Below, piece after piece: positions 4,728-31,247 of a stretch of DNA of 32,000 bases. Every line of letters starts with the position of its first letter. The first letter of the stretch is position 1. The DNA lies in contig CP025011.1 of assembly GCA_002952755.1 (NCBI GenBank), forward strand, positions 30,001-62,000, written 5' to 3'. The stretch comes from Candidatus Saccharimonadota bacterium. Its GTDB lineage: Bacteria; Patescibacteriota; Saccharimonadia; Saccharimonadales; UBA4665. The notes under the pieces were generated by a model, which worked only from the letters and a program-made list of their open reading frames with translations, was not told where the DNA came from and made no database searches. The position numbers were made by a program, and so were the translations under genes.

Positions 4728-4769
4728 TGTTTGTAGGCAAAACTACACCACGCATATAGTGTCCGTGAT

Positions 4770-4778
4770 TGCTATAGT
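4770..4778 (+). promoter_or_regulatory. extended -10 promoter (TGcTATAGT) for the riboswitch leader
   Basis: TGCTATAGT lies at 4770-4778, about 25 nt upstream of the conserved riboswitch core. Confidence 0.4.
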
Positions 4779-4784
4779 TAAAGA

Positions 4785-4952
4785 TAGTTAACAACCAAAA
4801 ATGCTGGAAGCGAGTGAGAATCTCGCACTGTGCCGCAACGGTAATTCTGTATACAGATAAGTCCGATACAGCAATAAACCATTCGTTCCCGAGCAGGAAA
4901 TGGCTATGCTGTAACCGCATACCTGCTCTTTTCGAACAAGAGCAGGTATTTT
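4785..4952 (+). promoter_or_regulatory. cobalamin riboswitch-like leader (short class) with a terminator/antiterminator expression platform
   Basis: Positions 4806-4844 read GGAAGCGAGTGAGAATCTCGCACTGTGCCGCAACGGTAA. This parallels the conserved Cbl core, for example the E. coli btuB leader GGGAAUCCAGUGCGAAUCUGGAGCUGACGCGCAGCGGUAAGGA. A hairpin TCTGTATACAGA follows at 4846-4857. AAGTCCGATACAGCA at 4859-4873 compares with AAGCCCGAAGACCUGCC. GCTG at 4803-4806 pairs with CAGC at 4869-4872. GAGCAGG at 4891-4897 can pair with CCTGCTC at 4922-4928, which is the 5' arm of the terminator. Confidence 0.7.
4921..4952 (+). terminator. rho-independent terminator forming the riboswitch expression platform
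   Basis: A 10-bp perfect stem (ACCTGCTCTT at 4921-4930 with AAGAGCAGGT at 4938-4947) encloses the loop TTCGAAC and is followed by ATTTT. It ends 3 nt before the ATG at 4955. Confidence 0.7.
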
Positions 4953-6760: not shown

Positions 6761-7010
6761 TCGTATCCTCACTCTCCTCAATAATTCCCAACCGTGGCCC
6801 GCGATCTCTATACGTCACTTTTTGTCCCGCAAAAAGGAACCAAAAACTCCCCAAGGCAAACGTAAAACACTACTGGAAAATACCCCGCACAGCATCTTCG
6901 CTGCGGAACTCGCCCTTGATTGGGCTCAAACAGTCCTCGCTCTTAATCGGCTGCGCTCTGGCATTTTCGAATCAGTTTTACTACAGGCCCCGAACCCCGT
7001 CGGAGATGGA
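6761..7010. repeat. left arm of a ~560-bp imperfect palindrome
   Basis: The arm is collinear with the reverse complement of 7067-7320. Block matches are 6774-6787 vs 7287-7300 (13/14), 6826-6847 vs 7224-7247, 6901-6914 vs 7154-7167 (14/14), 6923-6939 vs 7134-7150 (17/17) and 6973-6995 vs 7079-7100. It contains the hairpin CTTTTTG-tcccg-CAAAAAG at 6818-6836. Confidence 0.8.
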
Positions 7011-7066
7011 ATGCTAGAAACTAAAGTCCTTGAGTGTTTACTGAGCAAGCTTCAATCGCAGGATTA

Positions 7067-7320
7067 GATATCCGAGTAGTTCGGCCGTAATGGAAAACCG
7101 ATTAGCTGCAGGGCATTCCTGATCGGATACAGCCGAGGACTGTTTGAGCCGAAGGCGAGTTCCGCAGGCTCGTTCAGGAATGCCCTGCAGCTAGTAGGCT
7201 TTTTCATTTCCCCAGGCCGAGAGGTTTTTCGGTTCCTTTTTTGTGGGAAAAAAGGAACATTGAAGAGATTGCAATTCGCGGCCACAGAATTACTGAGGAG
7301 ATCTGGTATACAGGATCGTT
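7067..7320. repeat. right arm of the ~560-bp imperfect palindrome
   Basis: See the left arm for the block matches. This arm contains the hairpin GTTCCTTTTTT-gtggg-AAAAAAGGAAC (7232-7258, 11 bp perfect) and the long hairpin at 7105-7191. Confidence 0.8.
7105..7191. repeat. long hairpin E3: 18-bp perfect stem around a 51-nt loop
   Basis: GCTGCAGGGCATTCCTGA (7105-7122) pairs with TCAGGAATGCCCTGCAGC (7174-7191). The loop TCGGATACAGCCGAGGACTGTTTGAGCCGAAGGCGAGTTCCGCAGGCTCGT loosely resembles the E1/E2 core in layout. The left-arm counterpart has a degenerate stem. Confidence 0.75.
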
Positions 7321-14623: not shown

Positions 14624-14841
14624 TCGTTTTTTACTGTATCTCCCCCGATCTCCTTTGGCATCCAATGGTAGGTAAGATAATCTGGCCTACCCCACTTCAG
14701 TACCCATGAATAGTCTAGTTGTTTAGATATTCTGTATGGACTCTGAAATGAATGCAGGGCGACAAGAGGTTATGATGGGCTACATAAAACCGAAGGCGCA
14801 TGTTTTTCTGCTAGACTGGAAATAGTAAAAGGATAAACAGT

Positions 14842-20008: not shown

Positions 20009-20611
20009 TTAGCGGGTAACTTTTTTGAGGATAATTCCGAGCCCTAAGCGAAGCAGCGTAAGTGCGCCGAAAAGTATACTCAAGGCTATGCCGAAACCAG
20101 CCGTATCCATCGACCAATTGGCCGAAGCAAAGTCGAATTTATACATGGCGTCGGGGATCGAACGTGGCGAAGTACCGTGATCTTTGACGTATTGTTCGAT
20201 GCACGGTACACGTGGACCCCCGGAAAAACTATTGGGATATTTTGCTTCGCAGGTATGTTGCGCATCAGTGTAGATAGCAGAATTGACACTATCAACACGT
20301 GCTTTTTCAGCTTGCTGGAGCCTCTCGTAAGTGTATTTTAGTTGAATTGGTGGGTACACGCCATCGGCGCTGGCGAGTGAGGTGTTCATATGGGAGCCGA
20401 CGAACGCTCTAAGGTTTTGCAAGGCGTGCTCGACGTCACCGTTATGTTGATCGGTGGTGTATACGGCTTGACGAAGTACCGCCATATGCTGATAATTGGC
20501 ACGCATACCAAAGATACCTATGAGCGCAAAAACTATCGTTACTGCAAGCAGGTACCAGACTTTAATAGGACGGATACGCGTCCATAGATGATGAAGGTAG
20601 CTTTTATACAT
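20009..20611 (-). CDS. hypothetical two-TM membrane protein with a Cys-containing ectodomain
   Basis: The 200-aa product has the TM helix VWYLLAVTIVFALIGIFG near the N-terminus and GFGIALSILFGALTLLRLGL near the C-terminus. Confidence 0.55.
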   Translation of the reverse strand: MYKSYLHHLWTRIRPIKVWYLLAVTIVFALIGIFGMRANYQHMAVLRQAVYTTDQHNGDVEHALQNLRAFVGSHMNTSLASADGVYPPIQLKYTYERLQQAEKARVDSVNSAIYTDAQHTCEAKYPNSFSGGPRVPCIEQYVKDHGTSPRSIPDAMYKFDFASANWSMDTAGFGIALSILFGALTLLRLGLGIILKKVTR

Positions 20612-20663: not shown

Positions 20664-20770
20664 GATACCCCGCTCTCTCACTCCGAGCAGAGTCAGGCGT
20701 AGTGCAGCCAGACCGACTTTTAGTCGGCCTGCGCGAAAACGCTCTGCTCGGAGTGAGAGAGCGGGGTATC
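20664..20770. repeat. hairpin element E1: 29-bp perfect stem around a conserved 49-nt core
   Basis: GATACCCCGCTCTCTCACTCCGAGCAGAG (20664-20692) pairs with CTCTGCTCGGAGTGAGAGAGCGGGGTATC (20742-20770). The core is TCAGGCGTAGTGCAGCCAGACCGACTTTTAGTCGGCCTGCGCGAAAACG. Confidence 0.9.
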
Positions 20771-20790
20771 CGCCGCCTGTATTGTTAAGT

Positions 20791-20827
20791 ATAAAAATCA
20801 ACCCTCTGGCAATGCCAGAGGGTTGAT
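20791..20827 (-). terminator. rho-independent terminator of the 20849-21454 gene
   Basis: On the minus strand, ATCAACCCTCTGGC..GCCAGAGGGTTGAT forms a 13-14 bp stem followed by TTTTTAT. Confidence 0.7.
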
Positions 20828-20848
20828 GAAGGTTCTTAAGTTTTTATA

Positions 20849-21454
20849 TTAGGGCTTGGTAGTAGTGGTCGGCGTACTGGTGGCCGTTGAACACTGCTGA
20901 CCCTTGGGGTTTTGCTGGACCCATTGGCTGATAGCTTTACTTACCTGGCCATCGGTCTTGAGGTTTTCCCAGAAGGTAACTTGATCGCGGTTGATGATCA
21001 TTTGATCTAGCGGACCGTGCAATTCACAACCCAGCTTCACTAGTGAAACACTCTGGTTACTGTTGGCGGCGTTGGTGGTGGCATCTTTTTGGTTTGGCTG
21101 TACTTGCTGGTTCACGTTTAAGTAGTACACGCCTTGCAGGTCAACAAAGCGACTATTGATGGCCGTGACCCTACCAAAGTAAACCTGGCCGTTCGTAAGG
21201 AAAACCGCCTGCTCGGTTTTGGTATTAACGTAGGATACCTCTTTTGTGCCACCATAATGCAGCAAAAAGACCATGGATATAGCTAAACATGTGATAGCGA
21301 AGAGCAATACGACCCACATAACGCGCAACCAACTTGGACTACTATTCCAGCTTTTGCTCACGCTCGGCCTGCTACTTGCACTCGATGTAGTGCCCGCAGC
21401 GCTTGCAGCGCGTGCCGGAGTAGGCTGGGCACCACGGTTCGTATTAAATTCCAT
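20849..21454 (-). CDS. hypothetical N-terminally anchored membrane protein
   Basis: The start is placed at MEFNTNRG, with an SD AAGGGGGA 8 nt upstream. It has the TM helix WLRVMWVVLLFAITCLAISMVFLL, a beta-rich ectodomain and a Thr-rich tail. Confidence 0.6.
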   Translation of the reverse strand: MEFNTNRGAQPTPARAASAAGTTSSASSRPSVSKSWNSSPSWLRVMWVVLLFAITCLAISMVFLLHYGGTKEVSYVNTKTEQAVFLTNGQVYFGRVTAINSRFVDLQGVYYLNVNQQVQPNQKDATTNAANSNQSVSLVKLGCELHGPLDQMIINRDQVTFWENLKTDGQVSKAISQWVQQNPKGQQCSTATSTPTTTTKP

Positions 21455-21586
21455 TAGAAAAATCCCCCTTTTATAGACACTAGTGTAATACATGTCCTTT
21501 ATAGGCCGCAAGTAGCTTATGGCTATTCTTATCCCTCATATGGCACATTTCTGCAGCTTAAGAGGTCGTCATCTGGAGCATAACTG

Positions 21587-21616
21587 TTGACAAAGGAAAA
21601 ACGATCAGAGTATGTT
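21587..21616 (+). promoter_or_regulatory. sigma70-type promoter for the 67-aa gene
   Basis: TTGACA (21587-21592), an 18-nt spacer and TATGTT (21611-21616). Confidence 0.45.
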
Positions 21617-21658
21617 AGGGATACCACTACTAAATGCTAAGAAGGGGATATTAAGCAA

Positions 21659-21862
21659 ATGGCATTTACGCAAACCAACCCTAAAGGTATCACGTACTAC
21701 CTGAACTCTAAGATGGTCGTACTGCGCGGCGGCAAAGAGCAGAAGATTTATTACTTCAGTAAAGACCTCCGCCCAGAGACTGCTGTCGATGAGCTCCCAG
21801 AAGGCATGGAAGTAAACGTTAACCCACGTAATGGATTCATGACTGTTAAGCGCAAGAAATAG
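21659..21862 (+). CDS. small conserved-looking hypothetical protein, 67 aa
   Basis: It has an SD GAAGGGGA upstream, basic beta-rich sequence (GITYYLNSKMVVLRGGKEQKIYYFSKD) and a strong terminator immediately downstream. Confidence 0.6.
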   Translation: MAFTQTNPKGITYYLNSKMVVLRGGKEQKIYYFSKDLRPETAVDELPEGMEVNVNPRNGFMTVKRKK

Positions 21863-21880
21863 CTTTTTTATATCTTCGCC

Positions 21881-21929
21881 AAACGACCGCCACCAATAGT
21901 CTAGGAGGGGCGGTCGTTTTAATTTTTTG
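21881..21929 (+). terminator. rho-independent terminator
   Basis: AAACGACCGCC (21881-21891) pairs with GGCGGTCGTTT (21909-21919), followed by TAATTTTTT. Confidence 0.75.
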
Positions 21930-21939
21930 CAATCTGTGG

Positions 21940-22047
21940 GCGGCAACCCATCCCCTTGGCTGAGTAGAGTCAGGCATAGTGCAGCCAGACCGACTTTGGT
22001 CGGCCTGCGCGAAAACGCTCTACTCAGCCAAGGGGATGGGTTGCCGC
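21940..22047. repeat. hairpin element E2: 30-bp perfect stem around a conserved 48-nt core
   Basis: GCGGCAACCCATCCCCTTGGCTGAGTAGAG (21940-21969) pairs with CTCTACTCAGCCAAGGGGATGGGTTGCCGC (22018-22047). The core is TCAGGCATAGTGCAGCCAGACCGACTTTGGTCGGCCTGCGCGAAAACG. Confidence 0.9.
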
Positions 22048-22090: not shown

Positions 22091-22846
22091 ATGACAGCAA
22101 TTGTAAAAGTAAAAGATCTCCGCAAGAAGTATGGTGACCGCGAGGTCGTGAAAGGCATTAGTTTTGAAGTAGAAAAGGGCGAAATCTTCGGTATCCTCGG
22201 CCCCAACGGCGCGGGGAAAACTACCACCCTGGAGATGATCGAAGCTGTCCGGCCTATTGATGGCGGCACCGCAACCATTGCGGGTGTAGACGTGGGCGGC
22301 AGCCCATGGGAGATTCGGCGTCTCATTGGTGTCCAACCGCAGTCGTCGGCGTTTCAGGATAAAACAAAATTGACCGAGGTGATCGAACTATTCGCCGCCG
22401 CTTACGGCGAGCGGGTCGACCCCATGGAGTTCTTAGAAGATGTGAAGCTGGCCGAAAAAGCGAATAGCTACGTCGAGAATTTGTCTGGCGGGCAGCGGCA
22501 ACGCTTAAGTATCGCCGCGGCGCTCGTGCATAGCCCCAAAGTATTCTTTATGGACGAGCCCACAACAGGTCTCGACCCCCAGGCTCGCCGTAATTTGTGG
22601 GAGCTGGTGGAGCATGTACGTAGCAAAGGTGTCACGGTTATTCTCACTACACACTACATGGACGAGGCCCAATTGCTCTGCGACCGCGTGGCGGTTATGG
22701 ACAATGGCGTTATCATTGCCTTGGATTCGCCCAAAGCTCTAATTAAGCAGCTTCTAGCCAAGGGCTTCACCAAGAAGCAACAAGTAGAGCAGGCCGATTT
22801 GGAAGACGTGTTTATTGATCTGACGGGAAAGGGCTTGAGGGATTAG
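22091..22846 (+). CDS. ABC transporter ATP-binding protein (ABC-2/DrrA-like exporter)
   Basis: It has Walker A GPNGAGKTT, the signature LSGGQRQRL, Walker B VFFMDEPTTGLD and the H-loop TTHYMDE. Confidence 0.9.
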   Translation: MTAIVKVKDLRKKYGDREVVKGISFEVEKGEIFGILGPNGAGKTTTLEMIEAVRPIDGGTATIAGVDVGGSPWEIRRLIGVQPQSSAFQDKTKLTEVIELFAAAYGERVDPMEFLEDVKLAEKANSYVENLSGGQRQRLSIAAALVHSPKVFFMDEPTTGLDPQARRNLWELVEHVRSKGVTVILTTHYMDEAQLLCDRVAVMDNGVIIALDSPKALIKQLLAKGFTKKQQVEQADLEDVFIDLTGKGLRD

Positions 22847-23003
22847 CTTATGACCCCATCTCAAATCTCCCCTCCGCCCCAAACCACCCAGTTTCGGCCA
22901 AGATCTGCCCAGGCTGCGTCAGCGTACCCGTCGGTACACTTCCTTACCCTGAACAAATCTTGCCTCGAAACTGGACAATTTGACATCGAAGAGGAGGTTT
23001 GAG

Positions 23004-24131
23004 ATGGGGTCAATGAGTACATTCAAAAAGCAGTGGTTTACCGTGGGCGTTTTTGCGCGGCAAAGCACACGCCGCTTTTTCCGTGATCGTCTGGCGATCT
23101 TTTTTGGCATCTTGTTTCCGCTTATCTTCCTATTTGTATTCGGTGGAATTTTTGGCAAGGCGAGCGGCACCTCATTTAAGGTAGCGCTGTTGAATCAATC
23201 CAACACTGCGTCGGCACACAGCTTTGTAAGTGAAGCCGGCCATAGCAAGTTACTCAAAATAGACAAAACGATCACGACTATGGATAAGGCACAGGCCAAG
23301 ATGGTTCGCTCCCAGATTGACGCCACTATCGTGCTACCGCCAGATTTCGGCACCGTTAAGAAAGGACAAGCTTACCCTTCTGGTACGGCGTTGGTGGAAT
23401 ATACCCAAAATGGTCAGCAGGCCGGCCAAACGCTCACCTCAATTCTCGATGCCGAGTTTGTCGGTATGAACGGCAAGTATGTTTCAACCGTGACGCCCTT
23501 TAAGGCAGCGGGCAAACAGACGGTTAATAAAAGCCTGAGTCAGTTTGACTACACTTTTGCCGGGTTACTCGGTTTTTCGATCATCGGCATGGGCATTTTT
23601 GGTCCGATCAACGTATTCCCAGAGCTAAAGAAGCAGGGTATCTTGCGCCGCTTGCACACCACGCCGTTGCGCGTGTGGCAGTATTTTACGGCAACCATGA
23701 TTTCGCAAGCGATTGTCGGCTTAGTATCTCTGAGCGTGATGTTCGCGGTGGCGATCGGTGTCTTTCATCTGCATGTGGTGGGCAACTGGCTACTGATCGC
23801 TGCGTGGTTGGTCTTTAGTATTGTGATGATTCTCGGGATTGGCTTATCGATTGGCGGTTGGGCCAAGAATGAACGTCAGGCAGCGCCGTTGTCAAACATC
23901 ATCGTATTTCCAATGCTGTTCTTAAGCGGTACCTTCTTCCCGCGTTTCTTGATGCCCGAATGGCTGCAGAATGCCACCGCGTACCTGCCCCTTACTCCAG
24001 TGATTGATGGGATCCGATTGATCACCACTGAAGGTAAAGGTGTTATGGATTTGCTCTCTCAGCTCGGAATTATGGCCGGCTGGACAGTCATCATTTACCT
24101 CATCGCGTTCCGTGTATTCCGTTGGGAGTAA
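23004..24131 (+). CDS. ABC-2 type transporter permease
   Basis: It has six or so TM helices and a large first extracytoplasmic loop. An SD GAGGAGG lies 6 nt before the ATG at 23004; the track's TTG at 22980 is less likely. Confidence 0.8.
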   Translation: MGSMSTFKKQWFTVGVFARQSTRRFFRDRLAIFFGILFPLIFLFVFGGIFGKASGTSFKVALLNQSNTASAHSFVSEAGHSKLLKIDKTITTMDKAQAKMVRSQIDATIVLPPDFGTVKKGQAYPSGTALVEYTQNGQQAGQTLTSILDAEFVGMNGKYVSTVTPFKAAGKQTVNKSLSQFDYTFAGLLGFSIIGMGIFGPINVFPELKKQGILRRLHTTPLRVWQYFTATMISQAIVGLVSLSVMFAVAIGVFHLHVVGNWLLIAAWLVFSIVMILGIGLSIGGWAKNERQAAPLSNIIVFPMLFLSGTFFPRFLMPEWLQNATAYLPLTPVIDGIRLITTEGKGVMDLLSQLGIMAGWTVIIYLIAFRVFRWE

Positions 24132-29872: not shown

Positions 29873-29947
29873 CGCGGGGTGGAGCAGCGGCAGCTCGCGT
29901 GGCTCATAACCACGAGGTCAGAGGTTCGAGTCCTCTCCCCGCAACCA
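29873..29947 (+). tRNA. initiator tRNA-fMet (CAU), CCA encoded
   Basis: The sequence reads CGCGGGG-TG-GAGC-AGCGGCA-GCTC-G-CGTGG-CTCATAA-CCACG-AGGTC-AGAGG-TTCGAGT-CCTCT-CCCCGCA-A-CCA. The C1/A72 mismatch and A11:U24 pair are bacterial initiator hallmarks. The anticodon stem has U29:A41 instead of the first of the three G:C pairs. Confidence 0.9.
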
Positions 29948-30033
29948 AGTTGAAATAACAAATAGAGATTCGTCATATGACGAATCTCTATTTCTTGTCG
30001 CCTCTGTACATTAGGTTTCAGTCCTGTTAGGTC
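29946..30033 (+). repeat. direct repeat copy A (terminator plus conserved 28-mer)
   Basis: CAAGTTGAAATAACAAATAGAGATTCG..CGCCTCTGTACATTAGGTTTCAGTCCTGTTAGGTC aligns with 31164-31247. It starts inside the CCA end of tRNA-fMet. Confidence 0.85.
29960..29997 (+). terminator. rho-independent terminator downstream of tRNA-fMet
   Basis: A 14-bp stem (AAATAGAGATTCGT / ACGAATCTCTATTT) encloses the loop CATATG and runs into TTTCTT. Confidence 0.7.
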
Positions 30034-31163: not shown

Positions 31164-31247
31164 CAAGTTGAAATAACAGATAGAGATTCGCTTTACGGCG
31201 AGTCTCTTTTTTCGCCTCTGTACATTAGGTTTCAGTCCTGCTTGGCC
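31164..31247 (+). repeat. direct repeat copy B
   Basis: CAAGTTGAAATAACAGATAGAGATTCG..CGCCTCTGTACATTAGGTTTCAGTCCTGCTTGGCC. The 28-mer CGCCTCTGTACATTAGGTTTCAGTCCTG is identical to copy A. The terminator stem differs by compensatory changes. Confidence 0.85.
31182..31212 (+). terminator. rho-independent terminator downstream of the hydrolase gene
   Basis: AGAGATTCGC pairs with GCGAGTCTCT (10 bp, one G-T) around the loop TTTACG, followed by TTTTTT. Confidence 0.7.

Follow-up and report, generated by a model that had tools for sequence, protein, structure and literature searches.

Dispersed non-coding hairpins with a conserved core and copy-specific stalks in Saccharimonadales

Two hairpins with a shared core

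We describe two hairpin elements, E1 and E2, located in a 32,000-nt stretch of the genome of a Candidatus Saccharimonadota bacterium (Saccharimonadales; UBA4665; GCA_002952755.1, CP025011.1 positions 30,001–62,000), referred to here as the window. Both are members of an undescribed dispersed family of non-coding hairpins of Saccharimonadales, which occurs in several copies per genome and at different loci in different genomes. The elements are about 107–112 nt long, and their layout is the reverse of that of every described bacterial hairpin repeat: a conserved, structured and strand-specific tip, the core, is carried on a site-specific stalk of fixed length that is free of wobble pairs. Our preferred interpretation, to which we assign a probability of roughly 40%, is that of a non-autonomous, proliferating hairpin element whose structured core is recognized in single-stranded form and whose stalk arises or is maintained at the DNA level. 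We observed three complete copies and one partial copy directly; further copies were deduced from contig ends. The DNA examined from the same genome comprises the window and flanks of about 9 kb, about 41 kb in all.

Judged by protein similarity, the host is a bacterium of the Saccharibacteria, within the candidate phyla radiation (CPR), without a close sequenced relative. The next relatives of a 612-aa protein encoded in the window are at most 54% identical and are annotated as Candidatus Saccharimonadales, while relatives of MutY reach 66% identity or less. The genomes of Saccharibacteria and other CPR bacteria are tiny and leave little space for repeats, so that a proliferating non-coding element is notable in itself.

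E1 (20664..20770, 107 nt) consists of a 29-bp stalk and a 49-nt core and folds in the minus-strand sense. Its left arm, GATACCCCGCTCTCTCACTCCGAGCAGAG (20664..20692), forms 29 of 29 Watson-Crick pairs with the right arm (20742..20770), to which it is 100% complementary. The core spans 20693..20741 and reads CGUUUUCGCGCAGGCCGACUAAAAGUCGGUCUGGCUGCACUACGCCUGA on the minus strand. E2 (21940..22047, 108 nt) folds in the same sense and comprises a 30-bp stalk and a 48-nt core (21970..22017). Its left arm, GCGGCAACCCATCCCCTTGGCTGAGTAGAG (21940..21969), pairs at 30 of 30 positions with the right arm (22018..22047), which abuts the TTGGCA −35 hexamer (from 22048) of an ABC-transporter gene. The first-pass annotation of this DNA had described both stems as free of mismatches and G-T pairs; all 59 pairs are indeed Watson-Crick, and its coordinates were reproduced exactly. 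A covariance model built from three cores (E1, E2 and a copy in a distant relative, described below), here called R1, scores E1 at 77.8 bits and E2 at 73.5 bits, in both cases on the minus strand. The perfection of the arms lies far beyond chance: the folding energies are −80 kcal/mol for E1 and −86 kcal/mol for E2 (z = −11.7 and −14.2 relative to dinucleotide-shuffled sequences), a stability matched by 0 of 200 shuffles.

The similarity of the two elements is confined to their centers. As had been proposed, their cores differ by two substitutions and one indel, which correspond to G/A at 20699/21976 and to a loop of TTTTA in place of TTTG. The ten stalk positions adjacent to the core are identical at 8 of 10 sites, and at each of the two others the facing arm has changed in step (C:G to T:A both times). 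Over the outer 19–20 bp, similarity is at chance level at every offset, again as first described. The cores are about 94% identical, including positions of the inner hairpin that vary freely between genomes, and E1 and E2 therefore share a recent ancestor. Given such an ancestor, the unrelated outer stalks cannot result from gradual divergence by point mutation; the stalk must have been replaced, captured or generated as a block. Stalk length is nearly constant, at 29, 30 and 30 bp in the three complete copies. Of their 89 stalk pairs, 87 are Watson-Crick and none is G·T, whereas the core helices tolerate G·U.

The window holds no copies beyond E1 and E2, as judged by a 16-mer search allowing three mismatches, by blastn-short and by the covariance model with filters off. 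The stalk arms of E1 and E2 likewise find no match elsewhere in the window or in the rest of the 282 kb of fetched loci. No significant motif is common to the stalks, and the outer arms of the known copies resemble each other only in composition. Their 5′ arms are C-rich, with 48 C against 25 G (p about 0.01), a weak bias.

The folded core and its copies elsewhere

A complete homologue is present in the distant relative GCA_040383985.1, at positions 14702–14813 of locus L072 (L072:14702-14813), with 30-nt arms and a 52-nt core. Of its 30 stalk positions, 28 are paired, and a 2×2 TC/TC mismatch lies three pairs from the core. The expectation that stems would always be perfect thus holds for E1 and E2 and fails for this copy. 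We sought closer relatives through the MutY of GCA_040383985.1; the best match is 66% identical, which leaves no orthologous element copies to compare.

The L072 core aligns with the minus strand of the E1 and E2 cores (alignment A4), and core length ranges from 48 to 52 nt across copies. The shared layout reads GCGUU, 3–4 nt, CGC, a hairpin of 9–10 bp, GG, Y, UGCACUA(C/U)GC and YKGAC, of which GCGUU, CGC and GG-UGCACUACGC form invariant blocks across genomes. Two helices define the fold. P2, a 4-bp helix (GCGU/ACGC), closes an internal loop with an invariant 3′ strand, UGCACU; in E1 it pairs 20739–20742 with 20697–20700, with UGCACU at 20701–20706, and in E2 it pairs 22015–22018 with 21974–21977 and holds a G·U that results from the replacement of G by A at 21976. 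P3 is the 9–10-bp hairpin (20723–20733 with 20708–20717 in E1; 21999–22009 with 21985–21994 in E2) and contains a bulged G and a G·U pair, both invariant; the G·U occupies alignment columns 15/31, corresponding to 20728/20712 in E1. The sequence of P3 is wholly different between the two genomes, and pairing is nevertheless kept, with five pairs changed on both sides.

This fold is strand-specific. In the minus sense, all 42 cells of the alignment pair, no slid register comes close, and none of 500 shuffles reaches the observed score. When the same helices are read in the plus sense, 38 of 42 cells pair: the invariant G·U turns into an A·C mismatch, and the G-to-A change of E2 produces a second mismatch. 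RNAalifold recovers the same helices unaided. Because the fold is fully paired on the window minus strand only, the core works as a folded single strand, and the pairing pattern indicates that it is under selection in this form, as RNA or as single-stranded DNA. Since the core covaries, is strand-specific and contains an invariant G·U, it is unlikely to act purely as double-stranded DNA.

A covariance-model search had been proposed at the outset, and running R1 turned up a partial copy, E4, at L065:7660-7716, about 0.8 kb to the left of the window start; it belongs to the same genome as E1 and E2 and shares their strand. Over 258 kb of Saccharimonadales DNA, R1 finds only E1, E2, the L072 copy and E4. 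E4 sits at the end of the Logan contigs L065 and L066; its core is a distinct subtype within the same genome and adds two more compensated P3 pairs. The recurrence of the core in the same genome and in a distant relative establishes a real family, as the first-pass annotation had suspected. The syntenic regions of about 20 kb in five further Saccharimonadales contain no copy.

Searches beyond these loci returned no related sequence. Rfam 15, ribozymes and riboswitches included, gives no family at the gathering score, and its matches at E ≤ 10 are generic hairpin-like microRNA precursor models far below threshold. An exact 18-mer of the core matches the GTDB species genomes, a collection that does not hold the source genome, 17 times, all attributable to chance (about 17 expected). 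A 21-base core pattern with a variable loop gives 42 matches in the JGI metagenomes, which likewise lack the source genome, all of them in high-GC coding sequence without flanking core. In IMG/VR, four exact patterns (two from the core and one per stalk) and one degenerate family motif yield either nothing or two chance matches. A BLAST search of the whole of E2 against phage and plasmid collections gives nothing meaningful and nothing over the arms, and joined six-frame peptides of the core, with which we looked for spurious open reading frames over other copies, find no protein at E ≤ 10. In the literature on repeats and structured RNAs of Saccharibacteria and Patescibacteria, we found no description of the element. 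The view that it belongs to no known family has thus held up: Rfam is silent, and none of the findings named beforehand as removing the novelty (a core confined to these two elements, mismatched or absent stems in other copies, or a match to a known Rfam or IS-end family) was encountered outright.

Assembly break points provide a further source of information. Logan contigs (k = 31) from four samples are 100% identical to the window and end at the elements. We calibrated the effect of k = 31 on the palindrome at 29960–29993, for which predicted and observed ends agree at 29989 and 29964. At E2, contigs end at 22006, 21993 and 22022, and a de Bruijn simulation matches these ends exactly if another copy in the sample shares 21977–22022, that is, the core and five stalk bases, and differs outside. 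At E1, the ends at 20693 and 20741 are matched exactly if the whole E1 hairpin exists with other flanks; the alternative models (a flipped core, an empty-site allele, or a copy sharing the core only) predict different ends. The end shared by L065 and L066 inside E4 implies a further copy of the E4 type, which departs from it four bases into the stalk. These break points suggest further copies in the same genome, including the E1 hairpin with its arms elsewhere, although they are read from contig ends and not from reads. The genome holds at least three copies, with more inferred. The claim that stems always differ between copies is accordingly borne out by E1, E2 and the L072 copy, whose stalks are unrelated, and is called into question by this apparent second place of the whole E1 hairpin. 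A break predicted at the 30-nt arm of E2 is absent, which indicates that the assembler is not a pure unitig builder. In practical terms, short-read assemblies of these genomes are interrupted by the elements at predictable positions.

The same data bear on a role as double-stranded DNA, whether as a cruciform, as a protein-binding site or as an invertible switch that flips the core through its arms, an explanation to which we give almost no credence. Long, perfect inverted repeats would favor cruciform extrusion, and the orientation of the core is independent of the neighboring genes; however, the invariant G·U and the strand-asymmetric pairing argue for a single-stranded fold. The core contains no promoter-like site, as an invertible promoter switch would require, and the flip model predicts contig ends at 20692 and 20742 where 20693 and 20741 are observed. 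A 48-nt segment is also very short for recombinase-mediated inversion.

Genomic context and the origin of the stalk

The setting of the two elements in the window was confirmed in detail. E1 lies 16 nt past the T-run of a minus-strand terminator (20827–20797) and 52 nt ahead of the ATG at 20611; E2 lies about 12 nt past a terminator tail and 43 nt ahead of the ATG at 22091, with the −35 hexamer directly following. Their cores share one absolute orientation, and the flanking genes are on opposite strands. For E1, E4 and the L072 copy, the folding sense corresponds to the strand of the gene just upstream; E4 follows glmS by 54 nt and the L072 copy follows mutY by 10 nt, and terminator scans reveal no separate recognizable terminator at either. 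E2 is antisense to both of its neighbors and sits between a terminator and a promoter. The elements themselves do not qualify as intrinsic terminators: the scans locate the true one at 20827–20797 and none at the elements, and no T-run follows any stalk. They also reveal no promoter or T-run belonging to the element. The folding senses of E1, E2 and E4 all fall on the window minus strand, and the GC skew of the plus strand is positive throughout; three copies are too few to give this weight.

The 200-aa gene beside E1 (20009–20611) has orthologues of 51–57% identity in all relatives examined. In four relatives the orthologue lies on the opposite strand, and BLASTP confirmed three of these as orthologues; in one relative the strand is the same. 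The Mur ligase gene that precedes it in relatives is absent here. Because of this strand difference and the missing Mur ligase gene, we consider the locus beside E1 to be inverted or rearranged.

Several of these features would suit a functional structured RNA, the strongest of the rival explanations, though on balance a doubtful one. In such a scenario, the core would be a small RNA or a cis-acting protein-binding module, and the stalk a feature of double-stranded RNA; it could serve as an RNase III stem that releases a core RNA of about 70 nt, obstruct 3′ exonucleases, or stand in for a terminator of the upstream mRNA. The copies would then be numerous because many loci call for the function. 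The covariation of the core, together with its invariant G·U and invariant loop bases across genera, and a fold that works on one strand only are as expected for an RNA, and so are the sense orientation of E1, E4 and the L072 copy, each closely following a gene, and the lack of another recognizable terminator at the latter two. The core-proximal stalk is conserved with compensated changes, as if a mature RNA kept a stem of about 10 bp. The antisense position of E2 fits this picture poorly, however, as does an element that has neither a promoter nor a T-run of its own. The absence of any G·U among 87 stalk pairs, when G·U is tolerated in the core, would be unusual under selection at the RNA level, and divergence under a pairing constraint could not produce near-identical cores with unrelated outer stalks. 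Rfam, ribozymes included, offers no match.

The genes surrounding E1 and E2 keep their order in relatives. Here, 228 nt separate the 67-aa gene from the ABC-transporter gene, and E2 lies within this spacer; in five relatives with the same gene order, the spacer is 86–104 nt long and contains a terminator and a promoter only and no element. Conversely, the window site that corresponds to the L072 copy, after mutY, is a 21-nt spacer. Since the E2 site is empty in five relatives and the L072 copy occupies a different locus, the copies are not orthologous. Insertion into the mutY coding sequence of GCA_040383985.1 was considered and rejected, as this mutY is full length.

Non-orthologous positions also speak against a history in which ancient hairpins had their cores homogenized by gene conversion while the stalks drifted to saturation and were kept perfect by template switching within the hairpin. 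Quasi-palindrome correction by template switching is reportedly an established mutational mechanism, from work by Ripley and by Lovett. Cores that are near-identical within a genome and clearly diverged between genomes, together with the sharp boundary of similarity, would be in line with this history. We nonetheless consider it very improbable, with elements absent from the syntenic sites of five relatives and with E4 as a distinct core subtype in the same genome, which means that any homogenization is incomplete.

The sharp fall of similarity at 10 bp from the core, seen when E1 and E2 are compared, would also be expected if the mobile unit were only about 68 bp long, comprising the core and a terminal inverted repeat of about 10 bp (consensus C[C/T]GAG[C/T]AGAG...CTCT[G/A]CTC[G/A]G), and inserted at the dyad center of existing long palindromes, so that the outer 19–25 bp of the stalk would be host sequence. 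The genome does hold loop-less perfect palindromes, such as the 17+17-bp one at 29960–29993; the C-rich 5′ arms resemble local terminator stems; and the TC/TC mismatch of the L072 copy, 3 bp from its core, could represent a 2-bp target duplication at the center of a palindrome with 25-bp arms. Weighed against these points are the E2 site in five relatives, which has no palindrome besides an ordinary terminator, the lack of T-runs after the stalks, the lack of a target duplication in E1 and E2, and the contig ends at E1, which fit a second copy that includes the whole stalk. A constant stalk length of 29, 30 and 30 bp would be unexpected for arbitrary host palindromes, and overall we find this scenario improbable.

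We therefore favor, tentatively, the proliferating element introduced above. The element, when single-stranded or transcribed, would snap into one long hairpin with the core at its tip. A trans-acting enzyme would recognize the core by its shape and its invariant bases and place copies of the entire hairpin at new intergenic sites, in a manner comparable to the handling of folded single strands by RAYT or IS200/IS605-type enzymes. At the DNA level, one arm would serve as the template for the other, and in this way the stalk would be generated or its perfection maintained, either by fold-back synthesis during copying or by intra-hairpin template switching during replication. An arm-templated stalk would explain the absence of wobble pairs, the constant length and a turnover much faster than that of the core. 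What the data show are the architecture, the fold, the copy-specific stalks, the presence of multiple copies and their non-orthologous positions; we infer the enzyme, the intermediate in single-stranded form and how the stalk originates.

A number of points weigh against this proposal. No candidate enzyme (transposase, HUH protein, RAYT, reverse transcriptase or recombinase) is encoded in the 41 kb, and no direct repeat indicative of a target-site duplication is found at the stalk base in the flanks of E1, E2 and the L072 copy; a possible TC/TC duplication inside the L072 stalk is ambiguous. The relatives with an empty E2 site are distant, at about 50–65% amino-acid identity, so that intergenic turnover alone could explain the absence. 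Only three complete copies and one partial copy are direct observations, the others coming from contig ends. Movement of the whole hairpin, as implied by the E1 twin, leaves unexplained how near-identical cores gain unrelated stalks, and the C-rich 5′ arms are predicted neither by fold-back copying nor by random target capture. Finally, three of the four copies are sense-oriented just downstream of a gene, two of them without a separate terminator, which fits an RNA role equally well. The three explanations offered by the first-pass annotation, namely regeneration of one arm from the other, insertion into palindromes and a transcript resembling a short hairpin RNA, are not separable with four or five copies.

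An alternative route to unrelated stalks, which we rate as unlikely, is that the stalk is rewritten at each copying event. The core and one arm, or captured adjacent sequence, would travel as a single strand, and fold-back priming would yield the second arm, always about 30 bp in length. In a variant of this idea, the duplexes of about 30 bp would be acquired sequences expressed as hairpin RNAs, forming a guide or memory library unrelated to CRISPR. The notion that the stalk arms are acquired spacers gained no support, as they have no match in IMG/VR (exact 21-mers only), in the window or in the 282 kb of loci. If rewriting were true, it would represent a new self-templating mode of DNA mobility in bacteria. 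More generally, a self-templated stalk would expose fold-back or template-switch DNA copying in natural populations, and a core that acts as RNA would represent a new class of structured RNA with an unusual processing stalk. With either outcome, the core must have a protein partner in CPR bacteria.

Known repeat families and other hairpins nearby

The family is one of dispersed hairpin repeats with an inverted pattern of conservation, and it fits none of the known families with which we compared it. The initial observation that a conserved center with copy-specific stalks is the inverse of the REP/REPIN, MITE and attC layouts proved correct, and so did the distinction from CRISPR: the cores are 1277 nt apart, with genes between them and no tandem repeats.

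REPINs and REP doublets, which are associated with RAYT (TnpA-REP), come closest in several respects. They too are non-coding, intergenic hairpins of about 100 nt, present in multiple copies and often downstream of genes, and for both, movement as a folded single strand is proposed. REP stems contain G·T pairs and compensatory changes (PMC3116915, PMC3733652), as do stems of the E family. In REPINs, however, the arms (the REP sequences) are conserved and the spacer is variable, whereas E-family arms are copy-specific and the center is conserved. A RAYT (Y1/HUH) gene, usually with REPs on its flanks, accompanies REPs in a genome; no RAYT gene is seen in the 41 kb surrounding E1 and E2. The GTAG (or CGTC) tag of REPs is terminal and unpaired and lies directly beside a stem-loop of 6–13 bp (PMC3733652). 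A GTAG also occurs in the invariant core block of the E family (plus strand, 20699–20702, GCGTAGTGCA), but there the GT half takes part in P2 and P3 is 7 nt away; the presence of the tetranucleotide could be due to chance.

The MITEs of bacteria (miniature inverted-repeat transposable elements), such as Correia/NEMIS, ERIC and RUP, are likewise small, non-autonomous intergenic repeats that form a long hairpin and vary in presence between genomes; the E family is multi-copy, and the E2 site is empty in five relatives. MITEs differ in having conserved terminal inverted repeats, where the E family shares only the inner 10 bp or so and has unrelated termini, and in being flanked by direct target duplications, which are not seen for the E family. 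Like the E family, on our preferred reading of it, integron attC sites are imperfect to perfect palindromes of 57–141 nt, variable between copies, that are recognized as folded single strands with bulged bases marking the active strand. Their base is conserved (R″/R′ boxes, RYYYAAC...GTTRRRY) and their tip variable, whereas the E family has a variable base and a conserved tip. The attC consensus is not matched by the ends of the stalks (GATACCC..., GCGGCAA..., TCTGCCC...), and the gene lists contain no cassette array or integrase. The BIME-1 or RIP (RIB) elements of E. coli resemble the E family in that inverted arms surround a conserved center of about 30–50 nt, a candidate protein-binding site. 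In BIME-1, the two inverted REPs and the IHF-binding center are all conserved, and the center is double-stranded, in contrast to the variable arms and the strand-specific fold of the E family.

Among RNA-related systems, the processing stalks cleaved by RNase III in rRNA precursors and in some phage and small RNAs also enclose a conserved RNA within a long, non-conserved helix, and about 30 bp makes a suitable substrate. Such stalks contain mismatches and wobble pairs and belong to single-locus genes, whereas the E family is Watson-Crick only and dispersed, with one copy antisense. With regard to retron msr-msd, in which a1/a2 inverted repeats adjoin a reverse-transcriptase gene, the genes neighboring the copies encode no reverse-transcriptase domain, and the element has about half the usual size of a retron. 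The motif ACTACG in the invariant block CACUACGC (20701–20706, L072 core) resembles TACTACG/AC, the nick sequence of rolling-circle Rep proteins of the pMV158 type; a six-base match could be due to chance, but it suggests a candidate class of partner. Known self-cleaving ribozymes, a k-turn or C/D-box-like CUGA bulge, and domain V of group II introns were each considered and rejected: inspection of the sequences shows no fit, and Rfam gives no match.

Other long hairpins and repeats occur in the window and its surroundings. The stretch 6838–7254 is not covered by Logan contigs, one of which ends at 6867 and the next begins at 7225, and thus behaves like a repeat or a heterogeneous region. It includes a hairpin at 7094–7202 with 32-nt arms (28 of 32 positions complementary), a 45-nt center and a subsequent T-run, as well as long-range complementarity between 6899–6939 and 7134–7170, and it is bracketed by two terminator-like hairpins that are similar to each other (6818–6842 and 7231–7258); Rfam gives no match. 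This region may represent another long-hairpin element, unrelated to the E family, or a structured RNA of an unknown kind. The 7094–7202 hairpin was considered as a distant member of the E family and rejected, since the covariance model does not match it.

Between the ABC ATPase and permease genes, 26-nt arms at 22851–22876 and 22987–23012 are 88% complementary and lie 110 nt apart. The ribosome-binding site of the permease gene, GAGGAGG, lies within the 3′ arm and could be hidden by pairing, and the 5′ arm is C/T-rich, like the stalks of the E family. A palindromic, terminator-like sequence at 29946–30026, after a tRNA-Met gene, contains the perfect palindrome mentioned above; it is repeated at 31164–31240, about 1.2 kb downstream, with 86% identity, and these sequences form a small repeat family that also breaks short-read assemblies. 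A cobalamin riboswitch is predicted at 4753–4889, with 32.0 bits against a gathering score of 31.5. It lies upstream of a gene for a 508-aa protein without a Pfam domain, which could be an unrecognized B12-related transporter or binding protein. In the distant relative, L072:738-840 carries 24-nt arms (79% complementary) around an AT-rich, 55-nt center just downstream of a LexA-like gene; this center is unrelated to the E family, and the sequence may be an operator or promoter region.

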